A stretch of 64,000 bases of DNA. Source: Blepharisma stoltei ATCC 30299. Its lineage: Eukaryota > Protista > Ciliophora. Positions 4,544-46,573 of the stretch are shown here, piece after piece. The notes below the pieces were generated by a model, which was given only the letters and a program-made list of their open reading frames with translations, was not told where the DNA came from and did not search any database. Position 1 is the first letter of the stretch. Every line of letters starts with the position of its first letter. Location: assembly GCA_965603825.1 (NCBI GenBank), contig CBFDEM010000062.1:1-64000 (forward strand), given 5' to 3'. The translations under genes and the position numbers were made by a program.

Positions 4544-4876
4544 TTAGTTATAATAAGCAGTCATTATAATAATTATATATTTGAGCAATTCAATTTCACT
4601 CAATTCATGCCAATATTCATCTCTTTCCTTAAGTTTTCCACGACTTCTTTTGCTTTCAAATGTTTGGTTTGTATATGATACAATATCCTGGAGCACTTCA
4701 CTTGTAAAAAACAAATTGAATATTTCAGTGATTGAATAATTATCTGGAACTCTTATATTTGGCTTCTCGCATTCAACCTCCATTTCTTCAAAATATTCAG
4801 GCTGCACTTCATTCCAGCCTTGAAACCCACTATCTGTTGGCTGCATGCAGCCCATTTTAATAGGATATGCATCCAT
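4544..4876 (-). mobile_element. piggyBac-family (DDE_Tnp_1_7/PGBD-like) transposase N-terminal fragment, truncated
   Basis: SITEIFNLFFTSEVLQDIVSYTNQ...WHELSEIELLKYIIIIM matches the piggyBac N-terminal pattern FxLFFxxExxxxIVxxTN...WxxxxxxEL. It ends before the DDD catalytic core. Confidence 0.75.
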
Positions 4877-5638
4877 TTTAATTATAAAGGAACAAAAGAA
4901 GCACTTCTTAGGTTTTTACAAAAGAATAGTCAAAAAATAGCAAGCTGAAGGGAAAAATCCTAGCATCCTTTAGCTAACGTTTAGTTGAATCAAGAAACGG
5001 CATTGAAGAGCTTTTTGAATCAGTTTCAGATGAACTAAGAAATTATTTTACAAAAATTTCTCATAACCTCCTTTAAATGGTTAATTTTTTTCATGGATTT
5101 ATTTATTTATTTCTTGGATAATAACTAAGCCTTCTTGCGTTACAGTAAACTGAACCCAACATTTATTTGTAGCTTTCTTAATTTTTCAATAATTTCCCTC
5201 TGTCTATTTCTTTTTCAGAAAAATCTTTTCTTATTCTAATAAATCTTGAGTAAGTCTCGGCGTCCTTTCTCTGATCTCTATTCATTATCAGCTCCCAAGT
5301 CATAATTTTTTCATTGATTGGTACCCTCCGTGGCCTTTTACGAGGTTGCTTTTTAATAAGTCTACTTTCATAATTTCATGATGAATTTTTACCTGCTCAT
5401 CTTTAATCTGGGAACTTAATTTTTTTATATCTTCGCAAGCCTTTCATTTTTTTTGGTAGTCTTTATAAGCTGCTCCTGGGTTTCGATTTCTTTCAAAAAA
5501 ATATTTTTTTATCTTTTCAGCGAATTTTTTCTATTAAAGTGGCTGCATTGGTTAAATTACCTTTTTAGCTTATTTCAAGAACTTTTCTTGATCAAAATGT
5601 AAAATTTCTACTCTAATTCTTTTATTTTTTCTTCTTAG

Positions 5639-6778
5639 TCAAGTATTTCACCATGAGATCCACTTTCTCCACCAAATCTGACTGAACCAGCCAATATTCC
5701 TCCCTCATCTGAAGTAAAAAAACTATTTATTCTTAAAGCAATATTATAGTCGAACGCGTGCTCTTTAATCAGCATTTTTCATTTACCACCAAATTGAACT
5801 TTGTAGAAAACAATACCACGGAGTATCATTTTGTCAAAATATCTATAATGCTTATCATTATTATGCAAATCAAAAGCAATCTTCATGCATTGCTTTACAC
5901 AGATCAGCCAAAGTACATTCTCCGCTTTTTCCTTGACATGACTAATATCAGCTGTATCAAGCTTCTTATACTCATGAATGATAATACTAGTCTTTTTATG
6001 TTTAGTAGGGATGAAAATCCCATCAACCTTCCTCCTAAATTTATTTGGTGTTTCCAAATGCAATGTATAATTTGCATCTCCTGTCTCTATTGAGGCTAGC
6101 ATCGCTATTCCTCCTAATAAGATTTGAAAATCTGCCTCTGCTTTACTAGTGTTATCGGCCATCTGATCAAGAATCTTTGATTGAATAAGATTTTGGAACT
6201 CAAATTTATCATCTAAGCTGGTGGTAAACTTCTCAACTATCTTATCAATATTAACTTTTCCTAAACCTATTTTTCTATTAATTCATTCTAAAAGTAGCGA
6301 TTTGTAAAAATGCTTTTTTATTTCTCTATTAGGAACTACATGTATTCAAGAGCTCACAAGATTTTTCTCTTCCATTTTAGTTGTGCTATATGGTGTTAAA
6401 TAGCCAGCATGCAGCAATAGGGTTTAAAAATTTTTTGTGCTGCTTAGATCTAATGACAAATTTATATAGCTTTAATTCCTCTTGACAATTCAAGATAGCC
6501 AGTTCTCATTATTTCAAATAATTCATCATAAGATTGTAGGTCATTAAATGCTGGCACCAGTGGATTAAGGCCATTAGCAAAGGTTCAATAAGGCTTGAAA
6601 GGATTGCTATTTTGGATTCTTCCTTTATTTATGCAGTTCATTATTGAGTAAAGATTGTAAATTTTTTGTCCGCAAATATTATATCCGTTATATCACAGCT
6701 TAATTAATCCTTTTTGCTCTAGCATGTCCTTCTCTGAATTACTTTGCAAGTTTTTCTCGATTAGAGTATTTACATCTG
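5639..6778 (-). pseudogene. 3' half of a broken AAA-ATPase-like/PD-(D/E)XK gene
   Basis: Near-copy of 34150-35290 (EADFQILLGG, VDGIFIP, IIHEYKK, LLHAGYLT) with stops and indels. Confidence 0.92.
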
Positions 6779-7500
6779 GAACTCCTTGCTGCGATTCATC
6801 AGCAATAGCACTCTAACTGAATGAAACATCGATTAAGTTTCATATGCACAAAAATTATACCATAGCCTAGGTGAAAACCCTGTTTCTTAGTATATGTGAT
6901 ATCAAGATCCAAAAAAGCTACTGGACACCTTTATTCTTAGTTATTCTTAGTCACAAGGGAAATCCAAAGACTATCGAATGCATATCATCTGAGGCTGCTC
7001 TTGATTCTCAGACTGGATCGATCCCAGTTCGATTTTAGCTTTAATTTTTGGACTGTTGTGCCAAGAGAAGCTCCATTTTAATATATATTAAACTCTTCAG
7101 CTAAAACCCAATATTTATTTCAGCAATTCTGTATATTGTTTTGGAGGATGAAATAATTTTAATTGTTTACCTCTATCCAGTAGATTTGATATTGACGAAA
7201 ATCGATGAATTTCATTGACTCCAATGCCTAAAGCTGATATTTATTGTCATATCATATTTTTTAATAGCAATATTTTGGTTGCTGGATACTTAAATAGAAA
7301 TATTTTGATATATTCGATTGATCTCGATTCATTTTCAAATGTACCTTATGATTTTACATATAGTTACAGAAAGATTTTGATAAATGCAGAAAGAGTATTC
7401 ATGAGCCTATAAATAATTGGATGATATAGACAAAGATAGGAGTCTACATTGGGGAAGCTATGGTTTGCATGAACAGATACTACAAATTTTGTTTAAGTAA
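6773..7500 (+). pseudogene. 3' half of a kelch-like gene, interrupted by a ~300-bp insert
   Basis: SGTPCCDSSAI at 6775-6807, then IYFSNSVYCFGGW...RWISLTPMP from 7113. It continues the gene whose 5' half ends at 12378. Confidence 0.75.
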
Positions 7501-8240
7501 AAAAAGATGACTTTAATTTAAGAAGATTTGTCTTAACTATTTATTAACTCTTCTGCAGGATTGCTCATCATATTCTCTTATGACTGGGCTTTGATCAGCA
7601 ATCAAAGCCTATTAATAAGCAAATTTAATGGTATAAAATAACAGAATTCAGATGACGGAGACACGATTCCATGTGCGAAATTCCTGAAAGCGGGGATTTG
7701 CTATCATTGCCAATGATAGCTCAATAATATCCTTACAAAACGGTCGTCCATGCACAAATGCAAATGCTTGCTTCACGAAAACTCAAAATATATATATTTG
7801 AAGACTATAAGCCTAGAATCATGCTTAAAATAGTGCAAATTTTAAACTCCTATAAGTGGATATTAAAAATCAGATTTCGCTTTAAATTTATTAGTGTCGA
7901 TTCCAAGGTCCTCAAGTGAAATGCTTTCATTGCTTGTGTGCAAATTGCTGTTAGGATTGACCACAATAATCTTTATAACTACACTATTTCAAAAAATTCT
8001 ATGCTATCTTGGGTCGCTTTACGAATAAAATGAGGATAATGCTCTGTCTGTAATATTGAGTCTGAGGGATAAATCATAAAATTGGTAAGATTTTAAAGAA
8101 TAGAGTTTGGAATCGCTACAGAATTTGGCACCCAATGTCATATCGAGTATTATAAGGAATCTTTTTATTAATAAAACATTGTGCATGCTATATGATTTTA
8201 AGCTAAGTAAAGAAAAGTAAATTATTAGATTGCTAAATAA

Positions 8241-9509
8241 ATGAACTGCTGAAAACAAGGATGCAGCCAAAAATGTGAGTTTTTATGCCTGCATGGAGGG
8301 AGCCAAGCCTATTTATGCCAAAGTCACATTAAGGATCATTTAAATTCAGACATAAGCATATGCCATGACATTGATGGACTTTATGCCCAGCCTAATATCG
8401 ATACAAAATTTTCTCTAATTAAATATCTCCAAAGCCTGCTATCAAACTCTGAAAACTTGAAGAATCAATTGGTCAGAGAACTGAGAGACAAAATTCAAGC
8501 CATTTCCACCTTATACAGCCAGCAACTAAAAAAAATAAACGAAATTGAATGGGAATATCAGTTATTAATTAAAAAACTCATACAAGTTAAAGAAATCCCA
8601 AGAATTTCTCCTAACAAACTTGAAGGTTTATTAGTTTTGCCCTCTAAAACAGCGCTGGAAAGGTTCCACAACTTTGAGTATGTCACCAAAGGAATAAGAC
8701 TTGGCTTAAGCCCGTATCACAAAGCTGAAATTTTCGTATTTAAGCAATATTCCAGAAATTTATTAAGATTATCCCTAGATAGCCTACAAACTGTCGTCCG
8801 CAACTTGCCTGAACTAGAAACAACGATTGAAAACCATATTTCTTTATGCAAGCTTCCAAATAATAAAATTTTTTGCTATGGGAATATTTGACCAGAAATT
8901 TCGAGTTCTTTGTCTTCGCCTAGAGGGACATCATTTGTAATTAATGAGGATTTTTCAATCATACCTATAAAAGATGGGAAACCTCGGAGTGGGGCGACTT
9001 CAGTTTATTATGAAAATTCTGTTTATGTATTTGGGGGGTGAAGCACAAAATTACATATTATTGATAGAATTACGGATTCTGCTGATAAATTTGATATTGA
9101 AAAAGGGGTTTGAGAAGCTTTAAATAGAATGCCTGAGCCTTCGATTTACGTATATACTTTAGTTTACAATGATTCGATATTGCTTTCAGGATATAATCAT
9201 CATAAATTGTATTGCTATAATATTATAGACAATGATTACTCGGAGCTTTTGGATTTGAGGGAAAAATGTAATAAGGTGATTTTTGAATGGAATTACAGCT
9301 TATACGTGATAGAATCTGGAGGAAATATTTGAAAAAGCGATAATAATATTTTGGAATGAAGATGGCTTAGAAACTGTATTGCATTTGGAGAAGTTTTATC
9401 TTATCATTCAACCTTCAAGTGGTCGATCTTTTTCTTAGATAGTAATTATTGGCTTTATAAATTCAGGCTTAGTAAAGAGAAGCTTGAAAAAATAAAACAA
9501 ATAATATAA
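8241..9509 (+). CDS. Cys/His Zn-finger (B-box-like) + coiled-coil + kelch-like propeller protein, 422 aa
   Basis: Single ORF with TGA=W: MNCWKQGCSQKCEFLC...LCQSHIKDH, LCKLPNNKIFCYGN, SVYVFGGW, WEALNRMP; ends TAA. Confidence 0.85.
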
Positions 9510-9906
9510 TTTATTTAAAATTAAATCGATTTGGGGTATTAATAAATTCTTCTTTGAATTTAATCCAGTTATTTTCAACATCATAAGTTAAGTGCAAAAT
9601 GTCTATCTATCTATTACTTAGAGTTAAAATCGAAAATAATTATTCGGATTGAGACTTTTTATCACAAGATCTTGCTAAATGGGGTTATGATCCAGATGTT
9701 TATTTGTGGGGCCGTCCATTTGATTTTAGCATATTGTAACAAAAATTCCTTATATATTTTATAAGCTCTTTTTAGAAGGTCTTTTTAGAAGCTCTTCTCA
9801 TAAGCTTTGTGTAATTCTAAAATAAGAATCAAACTTTGGTCAGGATATTCATCAAGCTATTATCAAGTACAATACGTGATGAAGTTTTCTATCAATCATT
9901 AGAAGT

Positions 9907-9964
9907 TATATAAGAATTGCCCGAGGATGGCGCAAGATAGCGCCATCCTCGGGCAATTACTATA
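9907..9964. repeat. GC-rich perfect hairpin (19-bp stem, 6-nt loop) between TATA direct repeats
   Basis: AATTGCCCGAGGATGGCGC (9915-9933) pairs with GCGCCATCCTCGGGCAATT (9940-9958). The hairpin is absent from the paralogous sequence at ~31590. Confidence 0.9.
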
Positions 9965-10356
9965 CATCATATCAGAGTGTATATAAAATCCGAACTATTT
10001 CATAATTCTTCTTATCACTATTTTTTAAAAGTCCCCAAAAATTTAGCATGTTCCACAAATTTTGGGAATCTGAAATCGCGGCTGATCAAATATAATATGA
10101 TATTGAAAACTAAAACTGAACGAGAAATCTAAGCCATTAGCAGCTCTACAGACATTTAAAGCACTGAAGAAGCCTTTTTCATGAACTTGTAAAAATTTAA
10201 TGTTTTACTTCTATAATAAAAGTCATTGTATTAACTGAGTAAAGGATATAGAAAGCTTTTCAACTATCTAAAAGACTTTAAAGAAAATTATATAAAATTA
10301 ATCATATAAAACAAATATGAAGCCCATCAGCCCCTTTTTATAAAATAATAATTGAT

Positions 10357-12383
10357 ATGGAAACCAATTTGTACAAATGCCCAAACTTGGGGAGAAACTA
10401 GCACTCCAGCCCCTTGCTCAACTGCTTATGGCATAAAAGAAGCGCTGAAACAATTTATGGCGATCGAATTCATCTAATAAGCCCTGGCATTTCAAATGGA
10501 AATTCTCCCGCCTTTGAAGATGAAACATCAGGCGTCTTATTTTACATCTCAGCTATGAATCAATTACTTGAGAGTGATAGTAACGCACTTAAAAAGCCAC
10601 TTGTTGCACTTTGGGAATCAAAAATTCTCAGCCAAGTTTCAGAACCTTCTGAAGCAATGCACTTAGAAAATTCATTATGGCAGATGATGGTGATTCTTCC
10701 AAAATATCACACACTTATTAGTGGAAATTCTCTTGAAAGAGCCGCAGAAACAGCATATTTGATAGACTCGTTTGGATTAGATTTGCGCATACCGAAACTT
10801 ATGAAATATTTGATACAAAATGAAATTGAAATTGGAATTTCTAGAGAGAATAGCCCTATCTTGAAATTCGGAGGTCTCTTTCCTGATCCAAACATTGAAG
10901 AAAAAAGCCTTAAGCTTCATGAGCATCCTCATGAAAGCGGACTGTGATCTGTTTTCAGTGCAGTTATGTTGATTTCAAGCGGAAACAATGATTTTTAGAG
11001 CCCTTTAGTATGTATGACCCATGCTTTAGTTTAAAGCTAAGAACTATTCTAAATGTGTATAATATCAAATTAGGCATGAGTCCAAATAGCCCTCTTCCTT
11101 GGTCGAATTATGACTCATGGGAGATTGAAATTGTAAATATGGAAATCCGTTCTACATTGATTTCTGAAATCTCAGACTGGGGAATGCTTGAAAAAGAAAC
11201 GGATTCATCCAAAAACGTTTAAATATCCATCAGCTTTGCACTGTTTGAGTATTAGCAATCAAACTTATGAGGAGAGCCAAAGATTTTATTAAAACAATTT
11301 ATACCCAGCTGAAAAATAAAGGTTCTTCATGAAGTCTTAAATTTAAATTTGATGGCAAATCAAGCACACCGCATCGCCTACCAAAAATTCAAAGTTCAAC
11401 ACTTCCAGCACATCAATCAATCATAAAGACTAAATCTGGTGGCAATTGTTAATTAATAATAAAAAATTTAAAAGGGCAGTTAAGAATAAAGAAAGCTTTA
11501 TTGATAAATCGTTACTCATAAAAGAAATTTTAACTAATGGTGCCCTCAATATACTCATAGTGCGTCCACAAAAATGGGGGGAGCATGAGCATGCTAAAAA
11601 CATTTTTCCACCCAAAATATGATGCATCTGGGAATTTTAAAATTTGTAATTGTTCACCGGTGGTAAAGATAGCATTGATGTCAGCAACTTGGATAAAACA
11701 AGATGTTTAAATATAATAAATGAAGATAATGGCTATTATTACCAAATGTTTGCTGGGAAAATTAGATCATTTTTCTAAACTTCTCCAGTATATATGAAAA
11801 ATTTGGAAATGACCCTGCAGAGGAATATATCGCAATGCAATTTCATATATAATCAAAGAAGCATACTTGGAATACTATCCACAGTATTTGGAATCCTTGA
11901 ACAAAATTATCAAAGAATATATTTCAATAAATCCAGATCTAGTGATAAATTTTAAAGATAAAGGCATATCAGAACTAGAAAAGATTATCGACACATATAA
12001 ACTATTTTTGCCATCGCACATTAAGTTGTTTAGATATTACAAAGATGATAGTTCATCAATAATCCAATCAAATGCTGTGCCTAATCTAGTTAGATTTGCT
12101 CATAAATTTTACAAACAGCAGGCAATTATTATTATTATTGTGGATGATTATGATACCCCACTTATTCAAGTAATAAATACTCCTTATCAAAAGGCTGTTT
12201 TAAGAATAATAGGTATGTTTATGGAGCCAATATGCATAGATGCCCTTGGTTGCATTTTTAAAGTGATAATGATAGGGAAGATACCTATTATAGGGAAAGG
12301 ACTTCCATGACTAAGAAATGTTAATATATATACTGTTCTAGATATAGAATACTCCCGATTTTTTGGCCTCACAGAATCAGATG
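10357..12383 (+). pseudogene. 5' half of a broken AAA-ATPase-like/PD-(D/E)XK gene
   Basis: Collinear with 32112-34155, with many frameshifts and a damaged Walker A region. It stops at GLTESD. Confidence 0.93.
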
Positions 12384-23507: not shown

Positions 23508-24118
23508 ATGCAAGATATTTAATTAATTTTTTATTAATAGATAGTTATTTGATAAAATGTTGCTTTACTATCTATGATCCTCAATAATAGGTCACTCGTA
23601 AATAAAAGTATTGATACTAGCCGATTTTGAAAATTAGAATAGAAAATATTTTATTTATTACTGTGATTTATTTTTAGATTCTTCTTTTATATTCCTTGAA
23701 TGAATCGTATAAGAATTTGAGGTCTCAAAGTGTGCTAAATCAGTAATATGCTCAATTCTTGGGTTATAATTGAATTCAACTGGAAATTAAAATAAAAAAT
23801 ATAATTTATTAAGCTTAAACTTCTTCGTAGTATCAACGAACAGCTTCGAAAACTATTTTAGAATTAGAAGACCATTCCAGAATCTCTCATTTTGAATGAT
23901 TATTTATTATCAAATATGGGAAGGCACTTGCGATAAAGAGCTCAGAATAATCATAGTTTCAGGACTTGCTATACTGTTTGAGTTCTTGCTTTATTTGTAT
24001 AAAGTCATATTAAGAACAGCCTAATGTAACCACAGCACAAATAAAGAATCAAGATTGATTCCAAAATAACTATTTTATTCAAATCTTTCTACACTTATTA
24101 TAATTTTGCATATATAAA

Positions 24119-26479
24119 ATGGATATTTCAGAGCCAGAGCTATCGTCAATTGATTTAGAAGAAGTCAATCACTCTTTAGTAATTGATGATGGAAAAATAG
24201 TTTACCAGCCAATAAGGCTAAAAAAAGTATATGAGGAATCTAAAGAAGGCAGCTTAAAGCAAACTAAATTGAAAACGGCGAACGGTCTCGACCCAATTAG
24301 CCCAAATGACTCGTTTAAAAGCAATATTTTGTCGAGTTTATTAAATAAAGAAAATGAGACAAAATTTTTAATTTTTATTTCCATGTATAACGAAGATCTC
24401 TCAATGCTCGAAAAAACGCTATCAGGGATAATTTCAAACTTCAAATATCTTAAAAAGGTAAGAGTTGAGCCTATAAATCTTGCGTGTGTAGTTATAGCAG
24501 ATGGAATGAAAGCCTTTTACTCCAAACATAAAAATGCTAACAATCAGGGAGAAAATAGTTCACAGTCTAAAAGCAAATTTTTTAATTTTGAAGAAATAAA
24601 AAGAGCATTTCCGCTAGCTTATGATGACCTATCGAACTGCAGATTTGCAGGCCAAACCAATGATGATGAGTTTGCACATACATTTACGCAAAACTTTGTA
24701 TTCCCTGAAAATCCAGATGAAGAACTCCAATTAATATTTTGCATAAAGCAAGAAAACAGGCGAAAATTAAATTCGCATTTTTGGTTCCTGCATGGCTTCT
24801 GCAAAATGATTGATCCTAAATTTGTCCAGTTTTTAGATGTTGGCACTATTCCTAATGAAAATGCTTTAGTATATTTATATCAAGCATTACTAAATGATGA
24901 AAGAATAGCAGGCTGCTGTGGGGAAATCGTACCTATTTATACAGGGTGGAAAAATTTAGTAGTAAATGCGCAGATTGTGGAGTATAAGTTTTCACATACT
25001 TTTGAAAAGAGCTTTGAAAGCATTTTTGGGTATGTTTCGGTGCTTCCAGGGGCGTTTAGTGCTTATAGATGGGAAGCTTTACAAGGTCCGCCAATAGAAG
25101 AGGATTATTTTAAACCAATTTTGAAACCTGAACTAATGAACCCTTACGAATCAAATGTATATTTGGCTGAGGATAGGGTTTTGTGTCTTTCTTTAGTATC
25201 GAAAAAAATTGCGAAACCACAAAAAAGTTATTTATTAAGGTATATAAGAAGAGCTATTGCAGAAACTGATGCCCCGGATACTTTGGGAGGACTAATCTCT
25301 CAAAGACGAAGATGAATTAATGGTTCCTGGTTTGCAGTACTGCATTTCTTCAGTAGTTTTGAAAAGATTTTCCTATCAAATCACCATTGATTCAGAAAAT
25401 TCATATTCTTTCTTCAATTACTCTATTTTGGAGCAACCACTGTTTTCCAGTGGTTTCTTATAGGCTCTTTTTTCCTTGTATTCGCTTTTACAGTAAGAAA
25501 TATCCCTAACTCTTCACTAAACAGTGAGAGTGATTTATTTACCCCACAAAACGTAATAATAATAGTCTACATGTCTATTTTGCTAATGACCTTATTAACT
25601 TCTCTCGGCACAAGACCTCAAAAAATCCCTGGACTGTTATACACAATCACCACTATTTATGGAATTTATATGATTTTTATAATGGCTTTGGTTATAATGT
25701 ATTTGTATGATCACGATTTTTTCTCAACGTGAGTCTATATCTTATCTGTCCTTACAGCTGCTACTTTTATCATTAATATCGCCATTAATTGGTCATTTAA
25801 ATCAATTTTGAGAGGCATTATTCAATATATATTCTTAACCCCTACATATGTCAATGTTTTTCTTATGCATGCAATGTGCAACTTGCATGACTGCACATGG
25901 GGCACAAGACCTGATAATCCAACTGAACAAGAAAGAGAAAATGAAGAAGATTTTAAAATTTTCAGGACTTATTGGCTAATGATTTGGGTCTTCACAAATG
26001 CTGGCTTTGCCTATGCTTTGAACTTTTTAAATAAAAACAAGAAAGGAGAAGGCTACGTGTATGCAATGGCGGCGACTGGGTTTTTTATTTTACTGCTGAG
26101 ATTTTTAGGGGGGATTTTTTATATGATTCAAGAATGCTTTTATGATAGAAAAATATTAAAATTCCCTATAAAGAAAATTCAAAGCAAAGATAATAGCGCT
26201 GCTGATGAAGAAAAAATAATGAAAATCGAGACAGCAAGCTATGGGAACTCTTTTAAAGATCACTCATTAAGCCAAAGTTCAAGCCCTATTTTGAATAGGT
26301 CCGTATATTATGGAAAAGCATTAAGCGTAGGAAATAATTCAATGGTTGCAGATCATGAGCAATCATTAGATTTTATGTTGTCCAAAAGCTGCAATGATGT
26401 TGAAGAAGGAATTGGCTTTGCAGCTAAAATAAGAAATATGAAGCTTCGTCAATCAGGAATCATGGTAGATAAAGTCTAA
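24119..26479 (+). CDS. Chitin synthase, copy 2 (tandem paralog)
   Basis: Same motifs as copy 1, offset 2963 bp; QRRR(TGA)INGSW. Confidence 0.96.
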
Positions 26480-26537
26480 AATTTTTAATATTTTTAATCA
26501 ATTCAATTATGATAAATATAAAAATTAAATATTATAA

Positions 26538-28283: not shown

Positions 28284-29477
28284 ATGAACTTTTCAGACTG
28301 TGAGAATTTTCTCAAAATCCTTATGAACGGTCCTCCAGGACATATAGAAAACACCAAAACCTTAGCCATAGCTTTCAACAACCCTCATGAAGGCTATAAT
28401 ATAATTCATATAACCGGGACTAACGGAAAAGGCACTGTGTCAAAATTATGTGCATCTGCATTAGAAAAATCAGGCTATAAAGTTGGTCTATATATATCCC
28501 CTCATATCTCAACTTTTCGTGAAAGAATCCGAATTAATTCAAAAATAATCCCCAAGCAAAAATGTGCTCAAATTACTGAAGAAATTGTTAAAATAACACA
28601 AGAAAGAAATCTATCAATTGGCTGATTCGAATATTTTTTATTTTTAGGATTTTTGTATTTCAAACAGGAAAATGTCGACTGAGCAGTCATAGAAGTCGGT
28701 GTTGGAGGATTGCTTGACAACACAAATATCGTAAATTCTTTTATATCAATAATTACATCAGTTGGTTTTGACCATGTAGAATTATTGGGACCTACATTAG
28801 AAGATATTGCTTTTCAAAAGGCTGGGATTATAAAAGAAGGAAGACCTTGTGTTATAGGACCTCATTGTCCTTTAGAAGTTATAAGCAAAGTGAGTAGAGA
28901 AAAGAGGGCTGAGCTAATTTGTGTTCCTGAAATAAGCGAAACAGCTTATAATGAAAATAAAAGAATAGTTTCTACTGCGTTTGACACTTTAAGAAGATAT
29001 GGAATAGAGATACAAGAAAATGTTTTGGATGGTTTGGATATACAGCAACCATGCAGGTGTCAGATCGAAAAAATTAATAATAAAGCAGTAGTTTTGGATG
29101 TTGGGCATAATCCTCCAGCAATTTCTCGGCTTTATCAAGATTTAAAGAATATTTTTCCTGGTTTTAAATTTGTTTCAATTTTTGCAATGACAAAAGGCAA
29201 AATGCATGAGGCTACCTTGAGGGAGCTAATAAATGGCACTGATAAGATTTATATTGTATCTTCAAGCCATCCCAAAATTGTTCCATATCAGGATCTAGCT
29301 GCAGTTTTAAATAATATAGCTCAAGGGCAGCTAGTTGGCTCAGGAGATTGTAATGAAACTGTTCCTGCAGTATTAGAAGAGCTCAGAGATAATGAAATTC
29401 TTGTGATTTGTGGAAGCTTTTATATTATGAAAACTGTTTGTGATTTACTTGGGATATCTTTAAAGGGCAAATTATAA
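28284..29477 (+). CDS. folC: Folylpolyglutamate synthase/dihydrofolate synthase
   Basis: IHITGTNGKGT, SPHISTFRERIRIN, VD(W)AVIEVGVGGLLD, DHVELLG, KAGIIK, LDVGHNP, ICGSFY. Confidence 0.93.
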
Positions 29478-29569
29478 TACAATTGGATTATATTTTATTA
29501 GTAAAATTATATAATTTCAAATATCATATAATTTATTAATTAGGTATCATGGCACCTTCCATGTCCCTT

Positions 29570-31046
29570 TTAATTATTTTGAGTCTGAGTAAAACCTTAT
29601 TCAATCATTGATTATCATTTTTCATACAATTGCGAGAATTTTCCAGTATTTCTGAGTACTCCTGGATTTTCTCTATTTTAATAGAGATATTGTGTCTAAT
29701 TAAATTATAAAATGAGACGAAAATTCCAGTATAAATATCAGGGTGTATGAGTAATTTTCCTAAAATTACATCTAGTAGTCCACTCTCTAAAATTCGCTTT
29801 GCTTGGTCAGTATCGCAAAGACTAGAAATATTGCAAAATACTCAGATGGCTTCTTTTGCAATAGTTTTGTATCATTTTTAATGTATTTCTTAATTTTTCA
29901 AAAACATTTGCACTTATAAAGTGACTAAAATAGATACTGCTATCTGCAGCTAAATTTGATAATGTCCAATATGCCTCTTTTCTCATACTCTCCTTATTAT
30001 AATCTATTAATCGAGTTAACTTTAAAAATAGCCCTGTATTTATGACACTATCTGGGCTCAATTTTTGAGTTGAAGAATTTCCAATATTTTTTAAAGCAAA
30101 ATAACTGATTTTAAAGTTTTGATAGTCTAGGAGAGAAATAATTCTGCCTAAGAGTTGGCTATCTAAAAAGAGATTCATGCTATAATTTTTTTCACTTATT
30201 TTGAAGAAAGAAAAAAGAGCATCTTCCAAAATTCCTTCATTTTGCTCATTCATTTAGATTTTTCGCAAAATAGGAACAAATATTTTGGTTTTATTAAAAT
30301 CAAGATTGCAATTGCGAGTGGCTAAAGAGCTAATGATCATGCAATTGTTCGGAAATTTTCACTTAAAAACTCATTTTCATGTATATTGAGAAAATTACTA
30401 ATAGCTGTGAGATTTAATTTCTGAAGTAATAAATTTTGATAAAAAGAACCAGTAATAGCAATATTTCCAATCGTTCACATTATATGCTCGAAGATTGGTA
30501 TTGAGTTATATTTCTCTAACAAATAATTTAATAAATCCAACGAATTTTGCGAAAGTAAATAGTCATTGCAGGATTTATCCCCTCCTGCGATATTTAATAT
30601 GATATATGAAACTTCATATATAAACTGCTCATCAGAGTATGAGATTAATTGAATGAGAGAAGGAAGGACATTAGATTGAATAACTTTTTGATAAGGAATT
30701 TCTGCTTTATACATAAGACGGCGTAATATTAAAGCCCCAGCTAGCTGCTGGCTACTAAGGCTAGAGCTTATTAAAATTGTAGCATATTTTATAGCATCAT
30801 CTTTAGAGAGATTAGCATTTTTCAGCTCTGATTCTATTAAAAAATCTTGAAGAGGATGAAATTTTTGAATATTTAATGTAGAAGATAATTCATTGGCTTC
30901 TTCAACTGAATTTAAATTTGAAAATTTAGTACCTTGCATCAAAGCATCTTCAGCTTTTTGAACATTTAATGAAGAAAATAATCCGATGACATTTCTAATG
31001 AGTTTTGATTTCCCTGGCTCTCATCAGTCTCCATTAGATCTCCAAT
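29570..31046 (-). pseudogene. Importin-alpha-like ARM-repeat gene, frameshifted
   Basis: YEVSYIILNIAGG, RKEAYWTLSNLAA and KEAI(W)VFCN, with frameshifts and a damaged start. Confidence 0.75.
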
Positions 31047-31076
31047 TGCGCAATTCTAAAATATTTAATATATTAT

Positions 31077-31466
31077 ATGATATCTGAAGATCTTGAAAAT
31101 CGCTATAAAGCCTTAATAAAGGAGTGCAACCAAGTGACTGAACTTAAACTGAAACAAAAAATCGTATATATCATATAGAAATCCGAAAGATGTCTTAGTA
31201 GTAAAGCGCCCAGGCCAAGATCCTGAAGAATTTACCAACAATAAGAAAAATAGATCAAGGTCCCCAAGAAATTTTGAACTGCATACAGAGCGTCCTCCTT
31301 TATTAAAAGGTTCTAAATCTGAAAGACTCCGAAACAAGAATATAGTGACCTCTTTATTAGGTCATCTTAAAAAAGCCAAGCAAGATTTATCTGAACAAAA
31401 ACCCAAGCTCGAGCTGCAAATGAAAGCTAACTTAAAAGTAACCCAAGAAATTAAAAAAAAGAAGAA
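31077..31466 (+). pseudogene. Truncated duplicate of the pinin-like gene
   Basis: Near-identical to 36417-36815, with an 11-bp deletion. It stops at the junction with the nuclease cassette. Confidence 0.85.
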
Positions 31467-32111
31467 TCTATATTTTAGCAGCTTAAGCTCTTTTTGGGTA
31501 ATTCTAAAATAAGAAGCAAATTTTGGTCAGGGTATTTATCAAACCAATATCAAGCATAAACGCTATGAAATTTTTTATCAATTATTGGAAATTATGCATT
31601 ATACCCGAGTGTATATAAGTATTACACTTAACTATATCCGAATTATTTCATAATTCTTTTCATTATATGGATATTTATTTTTCTCATCTGTATTCTCTTT
31701 TTGGTATAACAAAAATTTTCACATAAAAGCCCTGATAACTTCTTAAATCGTTGGTAAGCACAATAATCAAAATATTAATTTTTATAGTCCTAAAATCAGA
31801 CTCAGCTTTGATTAGACATGTAATTCATAAAAAAGATCTAAATATACTTTAGATTTAAAAGCATTTTGATTATAAATTATATTTGCTCATATATATATAT
31901 TTTAAAAAAGTCCCCAAAATGCAGCGTGTTACAGAAATTTGGGAATCTGAAATAAAGGCTGATCAAATATAGTAAAATATCGAAAACTAAAACTCAAATA
32001 AATAATCTAACTTATTAGCGGCTCTACAGACCTTGAAAGCACTGAAGAAGCCTTTTTCATATAATAATTTAATGTTTTATTTCAATAGCCCTTTATAAAA
32101 TAATAATTGAT

Positions 32112-35100
32112 ATGGAAACCAGTTTGCACCAATCCTTCTCAAACCTCTTAGCCTGGTCAGAAACTAGCCCTACAAGCACTTGCTCAACTGCTTATGGCAT
32201 AAAAGAAGTGCTGAAAATGATTTATGAAGATCGAATTCATATAATAAGCCCTGAAATCTCAAATGGATATTCTCCCGCCATTGAAGATGAAACATCAGGT
32301 GTCTTATTTTACATCTCAGCTATAAATCAATCACTTGAGAGTGATGGATACACGCTTAAAAAACCGCTTGTTGCATTTTGGGAATCAAAAATTCCCAGCC
32401 AAGTTTCAGAATCTTCTAAAGCAATGCAGCTAGAAAATTCACTATGGCAGATGATGGTGATTCTTCCAAAAAATCACACATCTATTAATGGAAATTCTCT
32501 TGAAAGAACCGCAGAAGCAGCATTTTTAATAGACTCGTTCGGGTTAGATTTGCAAATGCCGAAACTTATTAAATATTTGATACAAAATGAAATTGAAATT
32601 AGGATTCCTAGAGAGAATAGCCCTGCCTTGAAATTCGGTGGTCTCTTTCCTGGCGTAAATATTGAAGAAAAAAGCCTTAAGCTTCATGAGCATCCTCATG
32701 AAAGCGGACTGTGGTGTGTTTTCAATGCAGTTATGTTGATTTCAAGCGGAAACAATGATTTTTTAGAGCCCTTTAGTATGTATGACCCATGCTTTAGTTT
32801 AAAGCTGAGAGCTATTCTAAACACATATAATATCAAATTAGACATGAGTCCAAAAAGCCCTCTTCCTGAGTCGAATTATGACTCAAACGAGATTGAAATT
32901 ATTAATATAGAAATCCGCTCTGCATTGATTTCTGAAATCTCAGGCTGGGGAATGCTTGAAAAAGAAATGAAATTCGTCCAAAAACATTTAAAAATCCATC
33001 AACTTTGCACTGTTTGAGAGTATCAGCAATCAAACTTATGAGGAGAAGCCAAAAAATTTATTAAAAAAATTAATATTCAGCTGAGCAATAAAGGCTCTTC
33101 TTCATGAAGTCTTAAACTTAATTACAAATCAAGCACACCAAATCGTCCACCAAAAATTCAAAGTATAACACCTCCAACAAATCAAACAATCATGACGGCT
33201 AGACTTGATAGCAATTTGTCAATTAATAATGGAAAATTTACAAGGGCAGTTAAGAATAAAAGCTTTATTGATAAATCATTACTCATAAAAGAAATTTTAA
33301 CTAATGGCGCCCTCAATACACTCATAGTGCGTCCCCAAAAATTGGGGAAAACCCTTAACATGAACATGCTAAAATCTTTTTTCCACCCAAAATATGATGC
33401 TTATGGGAATTTTAAAAAATTGTATTTGTTCACCGGCGGCAAAGATAACATTGATGTCAACAACTTGGACAAAACAAAATGTTTGAATATAATAACTGAA
33501 GATAATGGTTATTATTACAAAAATTTTGCAGGGAAAATTCCGATTATTTTTCTAAATTTTTCCATAATATTTGAAAGAATTGACAATGAGTCTGCAGAGA
33601 ATTATTTACACAATGCACTTTCAGAAGTAATTAAAAATGCATACTTGGAATACTATCCAGAGTATTTGGAATCCTTGGAAAAAATTATAAAAGAATATGT
33701 TTCAGTAAATCCAAATGTTTTGATAAATATTAAAGATAAAGATATATCAGAACTAGAAATGATTATCGACACATATAAACTAACTTTGCCATCACACGTT
33801 AAATTGTTTAGAAAATACAAAGATGATAGCTCATCAATAATGGAACCTACGGCTGTGCCTAATCTTGCTAAGTTTGCTCATAAATTTTACAAAAAGCAGG
33901 TAATTATTATTATGGATGATTATGATACCCCACTTATTCAAGTAATAAATACTCCTTATGAAAAGGCTGCTTTAAGAATAATAGGTAAGTTTATGGACCC
34001 AATATGCATAGAAGCCCTTGATTGCATTTTTAAAGTGATAATGGTAGGGAATATACCTATTAAAGGAAAAGGACTTCCATGACTAAGATATGTTAATATA
34101 TATACAGTTCAAGATATAGAATATTCCCGATTTTTTGGCTTCACAGAATCAGAGGTAAATACTCTAATCGAGAAAAACTTGCAGAGTAATTCAGAGAAGG
34201 ACGTGCTAGAGCAAAAAGGATTAATTAAGCTGTGATACAACGGGTATAACCTTTGTGGAGAAAAAATTTACAATCCTCACTCTATAATAAACTGCATAAA
34301 TAAAGGAAAAACTCAAAATAGCAATCCTCTCCAGCCTTATTGAATCTTTGCTTATGACCTTAATCCACTAGTTCCAGCATTTAATGCCCTACAATCTTAT
34401 GATGAATTGTTTGAAATAATGAGAACTGGCTATCTTGAATTGCCAAGAGAAATTGACAGATACATAAACTTGTCATTAGATTTCAACAGCACACAAAATT
34501 TTTTTACTCTATTGTTACATGCTGGCTATTTAACACCATATAGCACAACTAAAATGGAAGAGAAAAGCCTTGCGACCACTTGAATATATGTAGTTCCTAA
34601 TAGAGAAATAAAAAAGCATTTTTACAACACGCTACTTTTAGAATGAATTAGTAGAAAATTAGGCTCAGGAAAAGTCAATATTGATAAGATAGTTAATGAG
34701 TTTGACACCAGCTTAGATAATAAATTTGAGTTCCAAAATCTTATCCAATCAAAGATTCTTGATGAAATGGTGGATAAAACTAGTAAAACAGAGGCAGACT
34801 TTCAAATCTTACTAGGGGGCATAGCGATGCTGGCCTCAATTATGACAATAAATTCAAATTACATATTACATTCAGAAGCACCAAATAAATTTAGGAAGAA
34901 GGTTGATGGGATTTTCATCCCTACCAAACACAAAAAAACTAGTGTTATCATTCATGAGTATAAGAAGATTGATACAGCTGATACTAGTTATGCCAAGGAA
35001 AAAGCGGAGGATGCCCTTTGGCAGATCTATGCAAAGCAATACATGAAGATTGCTTTTGATTTGCGTGATAGTGATAGGCATTATAGATATTTTGACAAAA

Positions 35101-35438
35101 TGATAGTCCGTGGTATTATTTTTTTCAAAGCTCAATACGGTGAGAATTGAAATATGCTGATTAAAGAGCACTCGTTCGACTTCAATAATGCTTTAAAAAT
35201 AAATGAAGTTTTTACTTCAGATGAAGGGGGAATATTGGCTGGATCAGCCGTGTTGTGTGGAGAAAGTGGGTCGCAAAGTGATAAGCTTGAAGCAAGGAGG
35301 TCTCTCGGTGGAGAAAGAATTAGCAATCTGATTAAAAATATTACTGGCGACAGTGAAGAAGAAACCCTAATAATGAAACGCAAACTTGACCCTGATAAAA
35401 TTAAACCAAATAAAAAGCCAAAACTTCGGGATAATTAA
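32112..35438 (+). CDS. 1108-aa protein: putative inactive Ulp1/CE-clan-like N-domain + AAA-ATPase-like (PF09820-type) + PD-(D/E)XK (PDDEXK_9-type) nuclease
   Basis: One frame interrupted only by TGA. Motifs: FIDKS, Walker A RPQKLGKT (33330), Walker B IIMDDYDTP (33912), FFGFTESEV, (W)YNGY, YNP, PY(W), LLHAGYLT, VPNREI, then VDG...IIHEYK...ALWQIYAKQY. Confidence 0.9.
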
Positions 35439-35511
35439 TGTTAACCTTAGGTTGAAATAATGTTTGCATTGATTAAATCTCCTAAGTAATTAAAGCACGA
35501 TTTCTTTTTCT

Positions 35512-36388
35512 AAATGTATTTCTTAATTTTTCAAAAAATAAAGTGTTAAAATAGATATTGGTATCTGAAGCTAAATTTGATAATGTCTATTATCTTGCTC
35601 GTTTATTAAGATTTTTGCAAAATAGGAATAAATATTTTGATTTTATTAAAATCAAGAGAATGGTTAAAGAGCTAATGCATCATGCAATATTTCTGAAATT
35701 TTCACTTAAAAACTCATTTTCATGTATATTGAGAAAATTACTAATAGCTGTGAGATTTAATTTCTGAAATAATAAATTTTGATAAAAAGAACCAGTAATA
35801 GCAATATTCCAATCGTTCACATTATATGCTTGAAGATTTGTATTGAGTTATATTTCTCTAACAAATAATTTAATAAATCCACGAATTTTGCGAAAGTAAA
35901 TAGTCATTGCAGGATTTATCCCCTCCTGCGATATTTAATATGATATATGAAACTTCATATATAAACTGTTCATCAGAGTATGGAATTAATTGAATGAGAG
36001 AAGGAAGGATATTAGATTGAATAACTTTTTGATAAGGAATTTCTGCTTTGCACGTAAGACGGCGTAATATTAAAGCCCCAGCTAACTGCTGGCTACTAAG
36101 GCTAGAGTTTATTAAAATTGTAGCATATTTTATAGCATCATCTTCAAAGAGATTAGCATTTTTCAGCTCTGATTCTATTAAAAAATCTTGAAGAGGATGA
36201 AATTTTTGAATATTTAATGTAGAAGATAATTCATTGGCTTCTTCAACTGAATTTAAATTTGAAAATTTAGTACCTTGCATCAAAGCATCTTCAGCTTTTT
36301 GAACATTTAATGAAGAAAATAATCCGATGACATTTTCTAATGAGTTTTGATTTTCCTGGCTCTCATCAGTCTCCATTAGATCTTCCAT
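35512..36388 (-). pseudogene. Partial duplicate of the ARM-repeat gene
   Basis: Copy of 29879-31046 with deletions and a frameshift (NSWIY* versus NSLDLL). Confidence 0.85.
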
Positions 36389-36416
36389 TGCAATTCTAAA
36401 ATATTTAATATTTAAT

Positions 36417-37223
36417 ATGATATCTGAAGATCTTGAAAATCGCTATAAAGCCTTAATAAAGGAGCGCAACCAAGTGACTGAAAAGCTTAAGAACTTGAAC
36501 TGAAACAAAAAATCGTATATATCATATAGAAATCCGAAAGATGTCTTAGTAGTAAAGCGCCCAGGCCAAGATCCTGAAGAATTTACCAACAGTAAGAAAA
36601 ATAGATCAAGGTCGCCAAGAAATTTTGAACTGCATACAGAGCGTCCTCCTTTATTAAAAGGTTCTAAATCTGAAAGACTCCGAAACAAGAATATAGTGAC
36701 CTCTTTATTAGGTCATCTTAAAAAAGCCAAGCAAGATTTATCTGAACAAAAACCCAAGCTCGAGCTGCAAATGAAAGCTAACTTAAAAGTAGCCCAAGAA
36801 ATTAAAAAACAAGAAGAGGAAATTCGAGTCCAAGCTCTTGAAGAAATTAATGTAAATTTCGAATAGAAACAAAAAGAGATTGAAATCCAGAAGAAAAACG
36901 AGCTAGATGAGCAGATAGCCAAGCTTCAATTTCAAATGCAGAAAGAGTCTCATGAAAATAGGACAGCAGTATATTGCAGCTATATTTTGACAGAGTAAAA
37001 AATATATAGCACTCAGCCTGGGATATTTTATATGCCCTATAAGCATAATGAAATTACCAAAAAAAGACTGGCACAGTCAAAAGAAAAAATTGAGGTAAAT
37101 TCTAGGCAGGGAAAGGCAGGAGTTTGGCACAGGCATCTTGAAGAAGAGGAGCTTAAAATGTCAAGGGAAAGATTGGAAAAAGTTGAAGAGGAGAATAAAA
37201 TCCTTAATATGAATAAAACTTAA
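36417..37223 (+). CDS. Pinin/SDK/memA-like splicing protein with two 15-nt introns
   Basis: RNKNIVTSLLGHLKKA and YILTDTQPGIFYMP resemble pinin motifs. Introns GTAAATTTCGAATAG (36852-36866) and GTAAAAAATATATAG (36995-37009) remove in-frame stops. Confidence 0.75.
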
Positions 37224-37321
37224 TTATTTTCCTTTTGAATTTGTCTATTTAGCATTAATAAGAATAAATTATTCTGCAGCTTCATATTGGAATATAAATG
37301 CCAAACAATCTAATCTATTTT

Positions 37322-39463
37322 TTATGAAATAAAATTAGCATTAACAAGGTGTTTTTCATAAATTGTTTTTTCAAAAGAACTATACGGGCCTCCATGCCCA
37401 CAAGTTAACGGAATTAAAAATCCAGCTTTCTGGTAATCCACTGTACTTGTCACAATCATGCTTTCGTTCAGGTTAAAAGATGAGCTCGAGTTTTCAGATG
37501 GAGTATTTTCAGCTCTTTCTTCTAGAAAACTCAGAACTCTTTGAAGGCTCTTATAAACTTTATCGACATCTTTACAAATTTCTCTTAATAGCGAGTTTGT
37601 CGAGTTTTCATTTGAAGAAATGACAATTTCCAATTCTTTTATTGCTTCTTTTATGGATTTTATAGTGTAGGTAATCGGACCACAAGTCTCAGAGCCTGCT
37701 AAATATAAGCTTGATCCCCAAATATCGAGTGTAGAAATTCATATTACCAAGTTAAGCTCTTGAAATTTTGCTTTTGATATTGAGCTTAATGAGCTCCCTC
37801 CAGAATCCAAGTTATCCATGACAGCCATTAATCTCATAACTGTGCTCACAATTTGTTCATCATCTAGAGAATCAGTCTCTTTCACCAATAGCTGATACTG
37901 AGTAGGGACTTTTGATAGGTGACCAGGATTATTTAATGAGTCTCCTTCACGAATTTTTTTGAAAATTGATAAATGCTCTATTAATCGAGTGAGCCTAGAA
38001 ATTGAGCCAGAAAAATTTGAAATTTCGTCTTCAGTTAAAATATGCGATTTTTTGATATTTTTCGATTTGGAAAGAGAAGTTGAAATTTTTTCTTGAAACC
38101 CAGTGGTTAATCTATAAGCCACTCCTGCTTTTAATGATGCTAAATCACTGATCATTTTGTCTTGAGGATCTGATGATAATATTTTATAACAGTCTGCAGC
38201 CAAATAATCTCCTGCAGAATCGCTATCAGCTTTCTGGGCCACTTTCAGCCCCCAATATGCGACTTTCCCAAAATTAAAAAACGACGTATCTTCCAGCGAC
38301 GCAAAAGTCCGATCAGCAAATAAAAAATCAAGTGCACACTCCCTTGCCAAGTGTGTCGCAATACACCCTCCTAGCGATTCTCCATGCACCCCCAATTTCG
38401 GCACATTTTTTGTCGTCCTCAAATAATTCACAATAATTTGCCCATCTTTCTGTATTCTTGGCAGACTCGGTTTCCCAGAAGTCCTTCCATACCCTCTGTA
38501 ATTCCACAAAAATACATTGATTCCATTTCTTATATAAAATTCAAGCCACTCAGTCTGAAAAAAAGAAAATTCATAGAAACCCGCATTTGGGTTGCAAATC
38601 AGCATGCAAGGACGTGGCAAGCCTTGAGGTGTGCTCTGCACAAAAAATCCATCAATATTTACACCGTCTTCTGCAGTTATCCAGACCTGCTCTGAATTAA
38701 AGCGCTTTAAGAGATCCGCCCTCATATAGTTTCCTGAGCCTAGCGTGTCGTCAAGTGCCCATCTTTTGAGCCTTTTATAGCAAGTTGTAGGCCCACAAGA
38801 AGTCAAAAGGGCTTTTCCAATTTGTTCACAAGTTTCAATGGCGTGGTGGAATTGTGTGTCATTGAGGCGATCTTCGAAAACTATATTGGATGGGTCAGGC
38901 TTTTCGTATTGGATTTTCATTCAGTTCCAGAGTTTGTATTCATCACAAGAATCCACAATAATTGTAATATCTTCAAGGGTGGATTTTAGGTCTATTAGAA
39001 GTGAGTAAAACTGATTTTGGTGTTTGGACAGTGAACTGCCAAGGGTTTTTAAGTTATCATGAATTGTTTCTATCAGATGACAAGTAAATGATACCGACCC
39101 ATACGATACCTGAGGGTTATTATCTTCATTTCCACTCTTTTTTGCTTTTTCATGCAAATGTTCCAAATATAAGTGAAGGTCTTTCATCTTGTAATAAATC
39201 TGTGACGTCATTTCTCTACAGAAACTTGCTTCAATCGATCGTCTTCAAAATCAGCAGGACCCTGGAAAAATCAAAATTTGTGCCGCAAATCGTAAGAGTA
39301 ATCATAAAGAAATTATGAAAAGCAAAAGAGACCCAGGCAAAGTAATTAGGTAGGAGAGTAAGAAAAAGACTTCGAAAATTAAGGCGAGAAAAAGGAGGAT
39401 ACTTGCCATGACTACGCCTCCAAAAATCAGAAGTTTGAGCTTTCTATTGCAGAAGTTTACCAT
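37322..39463 (-). CDS. Membrane-anchored alpha/beta hydrolase (ABHD-like), 713 aa
   Basis: N-terminal TMs, CNPNAGFYE, WNYRGYGRTSG, nucleophile elbow HGESLGG and ADRTF. Confidence 0.88.
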
Positions 39464-45132: not shown

Positions 45133-45243
45133 GTAATATTTAGATAAATATGAGGTAAAGTTTATATGGGAGAAATTGCATATTTTAGAGCAAAAATATT
45201 AAAAAATGGATATTTATTTTCAGGTAATTTATAGTAACCAATA

Positions 45244-46557
45244 ATGAGAGGTGAAGAAATTATTAATAGGCTGGCTGGGCTTATATTGATAAGTGTAGCA
45301 TTGAGTGCTCCTTTAGCTGACTTAGTAAAAAACCAGCCTGGACTTCCTGCCGAATATCCTGCTAGTTTTGATACATACTCTGGTTACCTTGATATCCCTA
45401 ACTCAGACGGAAAATCACTACACTACGTTCTTGTCGAAAGTCAAAATAACCCTGCAATCGATCCTTTAATTTTATGGATGAATGGCGGTCCAGGGTGTTC
45501 ATCTATGGCAGGTTTCGTTTATGAGCATGGCCCTTACGTCTTCACAGACGAAACAACCGTACTCCTAAAAAATCAATGATCTTGGAACACCAACGCCAGT
45601 GTCATTTATCTTGAAAGCCCAGCTGGAACTGGCTGGTCTCTTTTAGGAGCTTCTTCCAACAATGTCACTGACGATGAAATTGCAGCCCATGACAACCTTC
45701 AAGCCATTTTTCAGTTTTTCAAAAAATTCCCCGAATATAAAAATCACGATTTTTATATATCTGGAGAAAGCTATGGAGGAATCTATGTGCCGACCTTAGC
45801 TTATAATATCCTTATGTACAACAGCTATAGTCCTCATAATAGTATAAACTTAAAAGGAATCATTATAGGGAACCCTTATGTAGATGATAGTACTGATTCT
45901 ACCTCAGGCTTGATGAAATTGCTATGGTCTCATGCGTTGATTGACTATGAGTGATATAATAAATTGGTGGCAGACTGTGATAATTTCAATGACTGGGATA
46001 GTGTAGCTTGCAATAATGTTACAGATTATATACAGCTTAGCCTTCTCAGCAATTTGAATTTTTATAATATATATGGAAACTGTTTTCCTCAGAATGGCTT
46101 TGCCCCGCCCCGTGGGATAATTCCACCTTGTGCAGGCTGGGAAGGCTCGTTTCAGTATTTTTTAAACCAAACTGTAAGAACTGCTTTTAATATCCCAGAC
46201 TCAGTCCCACCGTGGGCTTTTTGCATATTTTTAGATTATACTGAAGACCTGGTGCATGGGTCTTTATATGTTTTCCCATTTCTTATCCGTTCAGGGCTGC
46301 GTATTTGGGTCTATTCTGGTGACTGTGATGGAGGGACACCGTTTATTGGAACTAGAGAATGGATTAGCAGCTTAAATTTGCCAATAAAGCAAAAATATAC
46401 ATCCTGGTACGTAGAAGACCAAGTAGCTGGCTTTTATATAGAGTATGAAGGCCTTACTTTTATAACAGTCAAAGGAGGTGGTCATAATATCCCAGAATGG
46501 AAAAGGCCTGAAGCCTGGCATATCATTATGTCATTCCTTAATGGAATTTCGCCGTAA
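45244..46557 (+). CDS. Serine carboxypeptidase (S10), copy 2
   Basis: [29 protein letters not shown]; two TGA codons align to TGG in copy 1. Confidence 0.95.
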
Positions 46558-46573
46558 TTAAATTTAAAAATAA

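Follow-up and report, generated by a model that had tools for sequence, protein, structure and literature searches.

DUF1703 proteins carry the family motifs RPRRFGKS and DEYD, and arginines 2 and 3 of the former have been proposed as sensor replacements (PMC1913061; here and throughout, such numbers refer to excerpts of the papers). They are expanded in Cardinium, where their function is called unknown (PMC6387759). Medea1 of Tribolium has been placed among Crinkler/RHS-type (CR) proteins as CR-NTPase8 plus CR-REase7, a nucleoside triphosphatase (NTPase) followed by a restriction endonuclease (REase), and the CifB nucleases of Wolbachia were derived from such elements (PMC11342252). In NTPase-REase effectors the REase is held responsible for toxicity and the NTPase for its regulation, and Ulp1-like peptidases are among the CR C-terminal domains (PMC5289972). 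A transposon origin has been proposed for these modules (PMC11342252, PMC5289972), and AAA-ATPase-like motifs have been reported in CifB (PMC12445526). Here we describe a relative of these proteins in the ciliate Blepharisma stoltei ATCC 30299. The gene, named copy 1, lies in the first 64,000 nucleotides (nt) of contig CBFDEM010000062.1 (assembly GCA_965603825.1, forward strand), a stretch that we call the window.

The core architecture of copy 1 is known from Medea1; what is new is a dead clan-CE protease domain ahead of a DUF1703 core in a ciliate nuclear genome. We tentatively read the protein as a switch-gated DNase directed to a nucleus, one of a conflict or defence family with fast turnover that Blepharisma has kept since a likely transfer from Rickettsiales-type endosymbionts, and give this reading a little less than even weight. 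The literature searched holds no account of the family in ciliates; Zhang et al. 2016 and the supplement of PMC9942806, outside that scope, may list genes, expression or ciliate CR-type members. In the two Blepharisma genome papers (PMC9942806, PMC9942856), no word begins with 'ATPase' or 'nuclease'. Copy 1 is composed as follows:

32112..35438, + strand: intact gene (copy 1), 1108 amino acids with TGA as tryptophan; open reading frame, RNA contigs and structure model (mean predicted local distance difference test, pLDDT, 81.7)
32166..32837, + strand: clan-CE (Ulp1-like) protease fold, residues 19-242; fold search and motif alignment
33210..34628, + strand: AAA+ (Cdc6/STAND-like) ATPase with helical and winged-helix region, residues 367-839; PF09820 (E 1.2e-13) and fold matches
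34749..35201, + strand: PD-(D/E)XK nuclease, residues about 880-1030; hhalign, ESM Atlas and secondary structure
35376..35435, + strand: basic tail resembling a bipartite nuclear localisation signal by eye; basic tails in paralogues, pLDDT <50
35439..35460, + strand: 3' untranslated region up to the poly(A) site; contig of run X8 with eight non-templated A's

Copy 1 is a nuclear gene of the ciliate and not a contaminant. Translation with table 4 confirms its 1108-residue frame with UGA read as tryptophan, as a reading made from the sequence only had stated. Nine of the tryptophans are encoded by TGA and six by TGG. TGA falls on W708 (in WYNGY), W744 (in YW), W845 and W1013, positions that are invariant or nearly so across homologues. 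Both this code and the telomere repeat CCCTAACA, found at 5-2481 of the window, agree with B. stoltei (PMC9942806). The GC content of copy 1 is 0.33 (0.29 at third codon positions), and its codon usage correlates at 0.90 with that of 12 neighbouring genes, which themselves give 0.74-0.93. The match in base and codon use marks a host-adapted gene, in line with the same reading. Contigs of DNA runs X1 and X3 cross 31411-32310 and 35009-35724 without a difference, bridging the duplication junctions on either side. Contamination is ruled out by host code, codon usage and bridged junctions together.

The gene is also transcribed and polyadenylated. RNA contigs span 32777-34159 without a gap; in runs X8 and X9 contigs lie over the reading frame and leave the flanks uncovered, and the X8 contig shows its non-templated A's behind 35460, 22 nt past the stop. 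None of the runs is recorded as RNA: that status is deduced from splicing and poly(A). In run X11, the contig over the neighbouring pinin gene has 45 gap letters, which match three 15-nt introns and show it to be spliced, next to an ungapped contig of 1383 nt over copy 1. Contig ends from RNA also match the paralogues P0002-P0004; contig depths were left out of any estimate of copy number or expression.

DNA run X12 represents a second haplotype, diverged from the window by about 1-3.5% in neighbouring genes. It holds a 97%-identical piece of copy 1 at similar depth and contigs at the left junction region, so the gene is present in this haplotype too; no presence/absence polymorphism is seen in the run. 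RNA runs X9 and X11 carry second-haplotype letters in the neighbours (28500-29460 and 37279-38000) and the window allele across copy 1 (32777-34159), a stretch over which X12 differs from the window at 16 places. This gives a weak hint of allele-biased expression, as contigs drop minor variants.

The nuclease is the best conserved part of the protein, with 21% invariant columns against 17% in the ATPase, 11% in the protease domain and 2% in the linker. It has the full DUF1703 motif set: E894 (motif I), D932 (II), E949-x-K951 (III), Q971 (IV) and Y977. Aligned by hhalign to 14 bacterial PF08011 proteins it reaches a probability of 95% (E 3.6e-8; reversed control 0.7%), and in the ESM Atlas it matches PDDEXK_9 clusters at 0.94 with 184 shared features. 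The modelled C-terminal domain runs in the order helix-three strands-helix-strand; whole-model fold searches barely probed this region. A PD-(D/E)XK fold with an intact site, as first proposed, is upheld. The domain is supported by the profile and language-model searches; in Pfam, PF08011 (PDDEXK_9) scores 15.3 bits, below the cut-off of 25.5, and P0015, from the same clade, clears it with 31 bits. Of the 14 B. stoltei rows aligned, four are without the domain, and the other ten all keep D, ExK and Q intact. Of the CR-REase7-type residues, tentatively mapped from one passage of PMC11342252, the glutamate on the first core strand is present (E922), and at the place of the histidine near the active-site glutamate this protein has a glutamine where bacterial rows have histidine. 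All nine full-length B. stoltei paralogues end in a basic tail.

Residues 19-242 form, in the AlphaFold model built from a 24-row alignment, a catalytically dead clan-CE deubiquitinase-like fold. Its matches are OtDUB (Z 13.2, root-mean-square deviation, rmsd, 2.8 over 164 residues), RickCE (Z 12.4), the CidB deubiquitinase (Z 10.3) and Ulp1 (Z 9.5). The catalytic histidine and cysteine sites are occupied by L111 and S198. The sequence-only reading had mentioned an Ulp1-like domain solely for comparison; the protein itself has one, in dead form. Both catalytic residues are missing in 10 of 10 aligned B. stoltei N-termini, and both are kept in two of eight close metagenome proteins, four of four Rickettsiales-type rows and two of two rows from a second eukaryote described below. 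The protease, which bacteria and one eukaryote have in intact form and Blepharisma has in dead form, offers a natural series from symbiont effector to host gene. Towards distant paralogues, the dead domain is 38-40% identical, the ATPase 35-39% and the linker 21-25%. This level, like that of the ATPase and above that of the linker, shows that the domain is kept for a role other than catalysis. Sequence searches of the PDB returned nothing significant with the full-length profile (one match, E 0.24), the nuclease profile (no match) or the N-terminus of locus L103; the N-terminus of locus L002 found RickCE at E 0.007.

The ATPase module is recognized by PF09820, the N-terminal AAA+ domain of DUF1703, with 51.7 bits (cut-off 26.1), and its fold matches the archaeal Cdc6/STAND-like ATPases PAB2304 (Z 16.4, rmsd 4.1, 310 aligned) and Sso1545 (Z 15.6). 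Its motifs are worn. Walker A reads RPQKLGKT against the family's RPRRxGK[ST], and Walker B DDYD against DEYD; both are canonical in only two of nine full-length B. stoltei paralogues. The claim of intact catalytic motifs therefore stands for the nuclease and falls for the ATPase, which would bind nucleotide with weak hydrolysis. By its motifs, copy 1 is best described as a derived variant of DUF1703, not as a canonical member.

Altogether, the protease and ATPase catalysts have been lost, and what selection has kept is the nuclease site together with the basic tail and the protease fold; this fits a switch-held nuclear DNase that a binding domain would trigger or aim. In such a protein the basic tail would bring about import into a nucleus, and the Cdc6/STAND-like module would bind nucleotide and hold the nuclease off. 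The dead protease domain, as a sensor or bait, may bind ubiquitin-like modifiers or a foreign protein; once triggered, the protein would cut DNA, either that of an invader inside the nucleus or that of the nucleus itself. Copies would spread through ordinary duplication and break repair, and not by a transposase of their own.

Copy 1 belongs to a multi-copy family, as had been claimed. Protein databases, which set a lower bound, hold nine full-length B. stoltei genes of 1013-1110 amino acids that are 36-68% identical to copy 1 in the alignment. There are also fragments (P0016, P0035, P0044, P0048, P0205, P0210 and P0211, and the pieces of copy 2 described below). The members are spread over eight contigs, with six records on a single 510-kb contig. 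No sibling of copy 1 at 90% identity or above is on record (protein cluster of one); its nearest relative is copy 2, at 87% nt. A recent selfish amplification, part of the earlier proposal, is not supported: beyond that nearest copy most stand at 36-68% amino acid identity, and the gene is common to two haplotypes.

Further afield, a HMMER search of 1.84 billion representatives gave 3843 matches, the closest outsiders being metagenome proteins at 29-35% identity. Three of the 80 metagenome loci collected (L001-L003) are AT-rich, use the standard code and bear introns, alongside genes for a kinase, a histidine kinase, an EF-hand protein and a cyclic-nucleotide channel; we read them as a ciliate-like eukaryote, judging by gene content and code. 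In this second eukaryote the protease motif is intact; two of its copies, 95% identical, are followed by different genes, and their homology ends about 150 nt past the stop. Stentor coeruleus has two homologous proteins, on 4.3-kb contigs, with neither protease domain nor basic tail, and Pirum gemmata has one. Protein database searches named no gene of the same architecture from another ciliate. Matches on viral contigs (16 loci, 24-32% identical) do not extend to the C-terminal end of the clade.

Two side observations concern these homologues. The Stentor proteins (P0072, P0105) and P0095 are short and have leaders that look mitochondrial by eye, as does a Megaera plasmid gene (L102:7557-10493); they may form a second, mitochondrion-targeted branch. 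A Rickettsiaceae metagenome-assembled genome (L103:1-7830) has a 2609-residue open frame with the same clan-CE start as P0069, and a DUF1703 gene follows it immediately.

Trees of the ATPase-nuclease core were built from 224 rows, 64 of those, and 27; rows covering fewer than 430 profile positions were dropped. The B. stoltei rows form one group (Shimodaira-Hasegawa-like approximate likelihood ratio, SH-aLRT, 100) within a 27-row group (99), itself within a 37-row group (97). The 27-row group includes an Anadelfobacter contig and the 37-row group the Megaera plasmid gene. Rows from Rickettsiaceae, Wolbachia and Bacteroidota come next, and free-living bacteria fall outside. The homologues of Stentor, Blepharisma and the second eukaryote are all nested among Rickettsiales-type sequences. 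The family was likely acquired from Rickettsiales-type endosymbionts, to judge from these trees. Such a patchy distribution, nested among endosymbiont sequences, agrees with the horizontal acquisition first proposed and differs from that of a vertically inherited, single-copy ortholog across ciliates.

Several points weigh against a defence DNase of this descent. The clan-CE assignment rests on predicted fold and motif order, and a profile-profile comparison of the Blepharisma N-terminal domain with Rickettsiales-type CE domains is not significant (probability <1%). The ratio of non-synonymous to synonymous substitution (dN/dS) between copies 1 and 2 is 0.82 (N-terminal half) and 0.50, values mixed with pseudogene decay. 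PADLOC assigned the four proteins submitted to no family. In the trees, most inner-clade rows are metagenome proteins with no visible host, and a single origin shared with Stentor is not rejected (approximately unbiased test, p-AU 0.40). The Anadelfobacter row (L100:2-1683), a contig of 1.7 kb, falls with the ciliate-like L002 clade; it may come from a close donor lineage or be misbinned host DNA.

The genomic setting of both copies bears on how the family spreads:

29880..31465, no strand: left copy of the duplicated target, an ARM-repeat gene (inferred to be importin-alpha-like) on - and the 5' part of pinin on +
35513..36817, no strand: right copy of the duplicated target, a truncated ARM gene and the complete pinin gene, which continues on
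31480..32111, + strand: upstream region with patches of homology to that of copy 2 (about 9790-10340), starting about 15 nt off the left junction
10337..12383, + strand: pseudogene copy 2, N-terminal half (residues 1-680), 11 frameshifts, two stops
5639..6778, - strand: pseudogene copy 2, C-terminal half (residues 681-1060), one frameshift, one stop, motif-IV Q and Y lost
6773..12383, no strand: reciprocal inversion with 6-bp inverted microhomology at its bounds, which also splits a kelch pseudogene
4544..4915, - strand: fragment of a piggyBac transposase, some 0.7 kb past the 3' break of copy 2; DDE_Tnp_1_7, 25.3 bits (cut-off 22.4)

A 4.05-kb insert (31466-35512) holds copy 1 and has an ARM-gene/pinin segment of 1.3-1.6 kb on either side; the two segments differ by 35 mismatches in 1212 aligned nt (2.9%) and nine indels. 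None of the marks of a cut-and-paste DNA transposon, namely terminal inverted repeats, a short target duplication and a DDE transposase, was found for copy 1. No open reading frame of at least 150 codons lies between 31143 and copy 1, and no antidote gene was found within the insert. The decayed second copy announced at 5.6-12.4 kb is there: both halves were found, at 87% nt with 12 frameshifts and three stops. Its inversion is confirmed in the sequence, read-bridging being shown for the junctions of copy 1. Gene scrambling as the cause of the split is ruled out by the 12 frameshifts and by the second gene broken at the same junctions.

That both copies sit at rearrangements, as the sequence-only reading noted, is true of the sequence; a causal link is not supported, given two unrelated tandem duplications in the window and the lack of terminal repeats. 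These are tandem pairs of chitin synthase genes (21124-26503, 84% nt) and of peptidase-like genes, serine carboxypeptidases by eye (43801-46581, 73% nt). As they too are duplicated, the link between copies and rearrangements is real and causation is not demonstrated.

It is unlikely, though worth weighing, that the gene is a selfish killer of the Medea or Spok kind. Conjugating cells would then be loaded with nuclease from the parental macronucleus, and any progeny without the gene in the new macronucleus would die, unable to keep the nuclease off. The ATPase-REase architecture is that of Medea1 (PMC11342252, PMC6387759), SPOK1 kills through DNA (PMC9972908), and the family has many diverged copies, pseudogenes and an insertion into a new locus. 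The mixed-haplotype RNA runs, with the window allele alone for copy 1, add a weak hint. However, the gene and its left junction region recur in the second haplotype, so that no presence/absence polymorphism is seen; the 4-kb insert comes without an antidote gene, the CR-REase7 histidine appears to be a glutamine, and the DUF1703 gene of Medea1 is itself tied to the phenotype by association in the excerpts.

A self-copying element would have its nuclease break a new site, where repair copies in gene and promoter and leaves long duplications and fragments. We hold this to be decidedly unlikely. The 4.05-kb cassette between 1.3-1.6-kb duplicates, with upstream homology to copy 2 starting about 15 nt off the junction, has the expected shape, but terminal repeats and a short target duplication are absent, and unrelated genes of the window are duplicated as well. 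The second eukaryote's 95%-identical copies, with different downstream genes and homology ending about 150 nt after the stop, would fit such a process; in B. stoltei, however, there is no sibling at 90% or above although the flanking duplicates differ by just 2.9%, so that a simple copy-paste event dating from the duplication lacks a donor. A piggyBac fragment adjoins copy 2, and a transposon origin has been proposed for such modules; the six records on one 510-kb contig are what local duplication would give.

A domesticated developmental nuclease, acting in macronuclear fragmentation before telomere addition or in the destruction of the old macronucleus, seems to us quite improbable. High turnover and many broken copies argue against such a role, as do protein searches that name the architecture from no other ciliate and Stentor homologues with neither a protease domain nor a basic tail; its appeal lies in the intact nuclease, the NLS-like tail (NLS, nuclear localisation signal), transcription, and the extensive somatic genome fragmentation of Blepharisma (PMC9942806). 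Very improbable is a relic under little selection, an old acquisition duplicating and decaying with leaky transcription: the dead protease, the worn ATPase, many fragments and a dN/dS of 0.82 (N-terminal half against copy 2) would suit it, yet nine frames of 1000-1100 amino acids at 36-68% identity keep the nuclease site and basic tail invariant, and the transcript is polyadenylated.

Other features of the window stand apart from this argument. From 2476 to 13000 it is a subtelomeric patchwork: a fragment of U3-associated protein 6 that the telomere cuts off, kelch genes along with kelch pseudogenes, a tetratricopeptide repeat (TPR) fragment and the piggyBac fragment, which lies 2-3 kb from the telomere. 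Upstream of copy 2, 9915-9958 forms a perfect 19-bp GC-rich hairpin (z -8.95, 0 of 200 shuffles), possibly a fold-back repair product, which is absent upstream of copy 1. In the window haplotype the ARM-repeat gene copies at 29540-31060 and 35513-36400 (both -) both seem to be disrupted; indels set X12 apart there, and one RNA contig of X11 is of the X12 type. DNA runs X1 and X3 share identical loose contig ends at 28190, 29389, 29993, 31562, 31867 and 33096; considered as junctions of internally eliminated sequences, they do not lie at TA sites of the window.

The likeness to CR/RHS-type effectors and CifB proposed at the outset, like that to Medea1, is borne out by the order of ATPase and REase, the variable header and the fold matches. 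With DUF1703 (PF09820 plus PF08011; PMC1913061, PMC6387759), copy 1 shares the AAA+ module, a helical region, the C-terminal PD-(D/E)XK motifs I-IV and a diverged multi-copy expansion like that of Cardinium (PMC6387759). It differs in being a eukaryotic nuclear gene with an N-terminal clan-CE pseudo-protease and a basic tail, in having arginines 2 and 3 of Walker A and the glutamate of Walker B replaced, and in scoring below the PF08011 cut-off. Medea1 (PMC11342252) is likened to it by architecture: a bacterial-type ATPase and then an REase in a eukaryote, a variable N-terminal header and rearranged DNA nearby. In contrast to Medea1, copy 1 has no composite Tc1 transposon and no shown drive, is common to two haplotypes, has a dead-protease header and carries glutamine at the likely CR-REase7 histidine. 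The Rickettsiales CE-clan effectors RickCE and OtDUB share the fold and keep the histidine and cysteine; so do CE-DUF1703 fusions (P0069, P0071, P0074 and that of Megaera plasmid L102), which join a CE domain to the DUF1703 core, although in L102 the CE-like domain is C-terminal.

Wolbachia CidB and CinB (CifB) likewise unite a clan-CE and a PD-(D/E)XK fold in one protein, and the model of copy 1 matches both the CidB deubiquitinase (Z 10.3, rmsd 3.9, 169 aligned) and CidB ND1-ND2 (Z 10.8, rmsd 3.2, 160 aligned). The domain order is reversed, and where CidB has an active deubiquitinase and dead nucleases (PMC7465683), copy 1 has a dead protease and one intact nuclease. It is host-encoded, with neither a cifA partner nor tandem PD-(D/E)XK domains, and is thus no CifB. 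By analogy, copy 1 could be a mirror image of CidB in a ciliate genome: an endosymbiont-derived, single-gene poison-antidote whose nuclease, supplied by the parental macronucleus, kills exconjugants not inheriting it, with the dead deubiquitinase and worn ATPase as self-protection switch. We regard this as an unlikely possibility; if true, a ciliate would have a drive family of the Medea kind, one in which the action of DUF1703 proteins could readily be tested. DUF1703 proteins are widespread; an association ties them to Medea1, and a common ancestry with the CifB nucleases has been proposed. In Blepharisma, where conjugation can be induced, two strains exist and time-course RNA data are public, defence, drive and domestication can be separated by simple tests.

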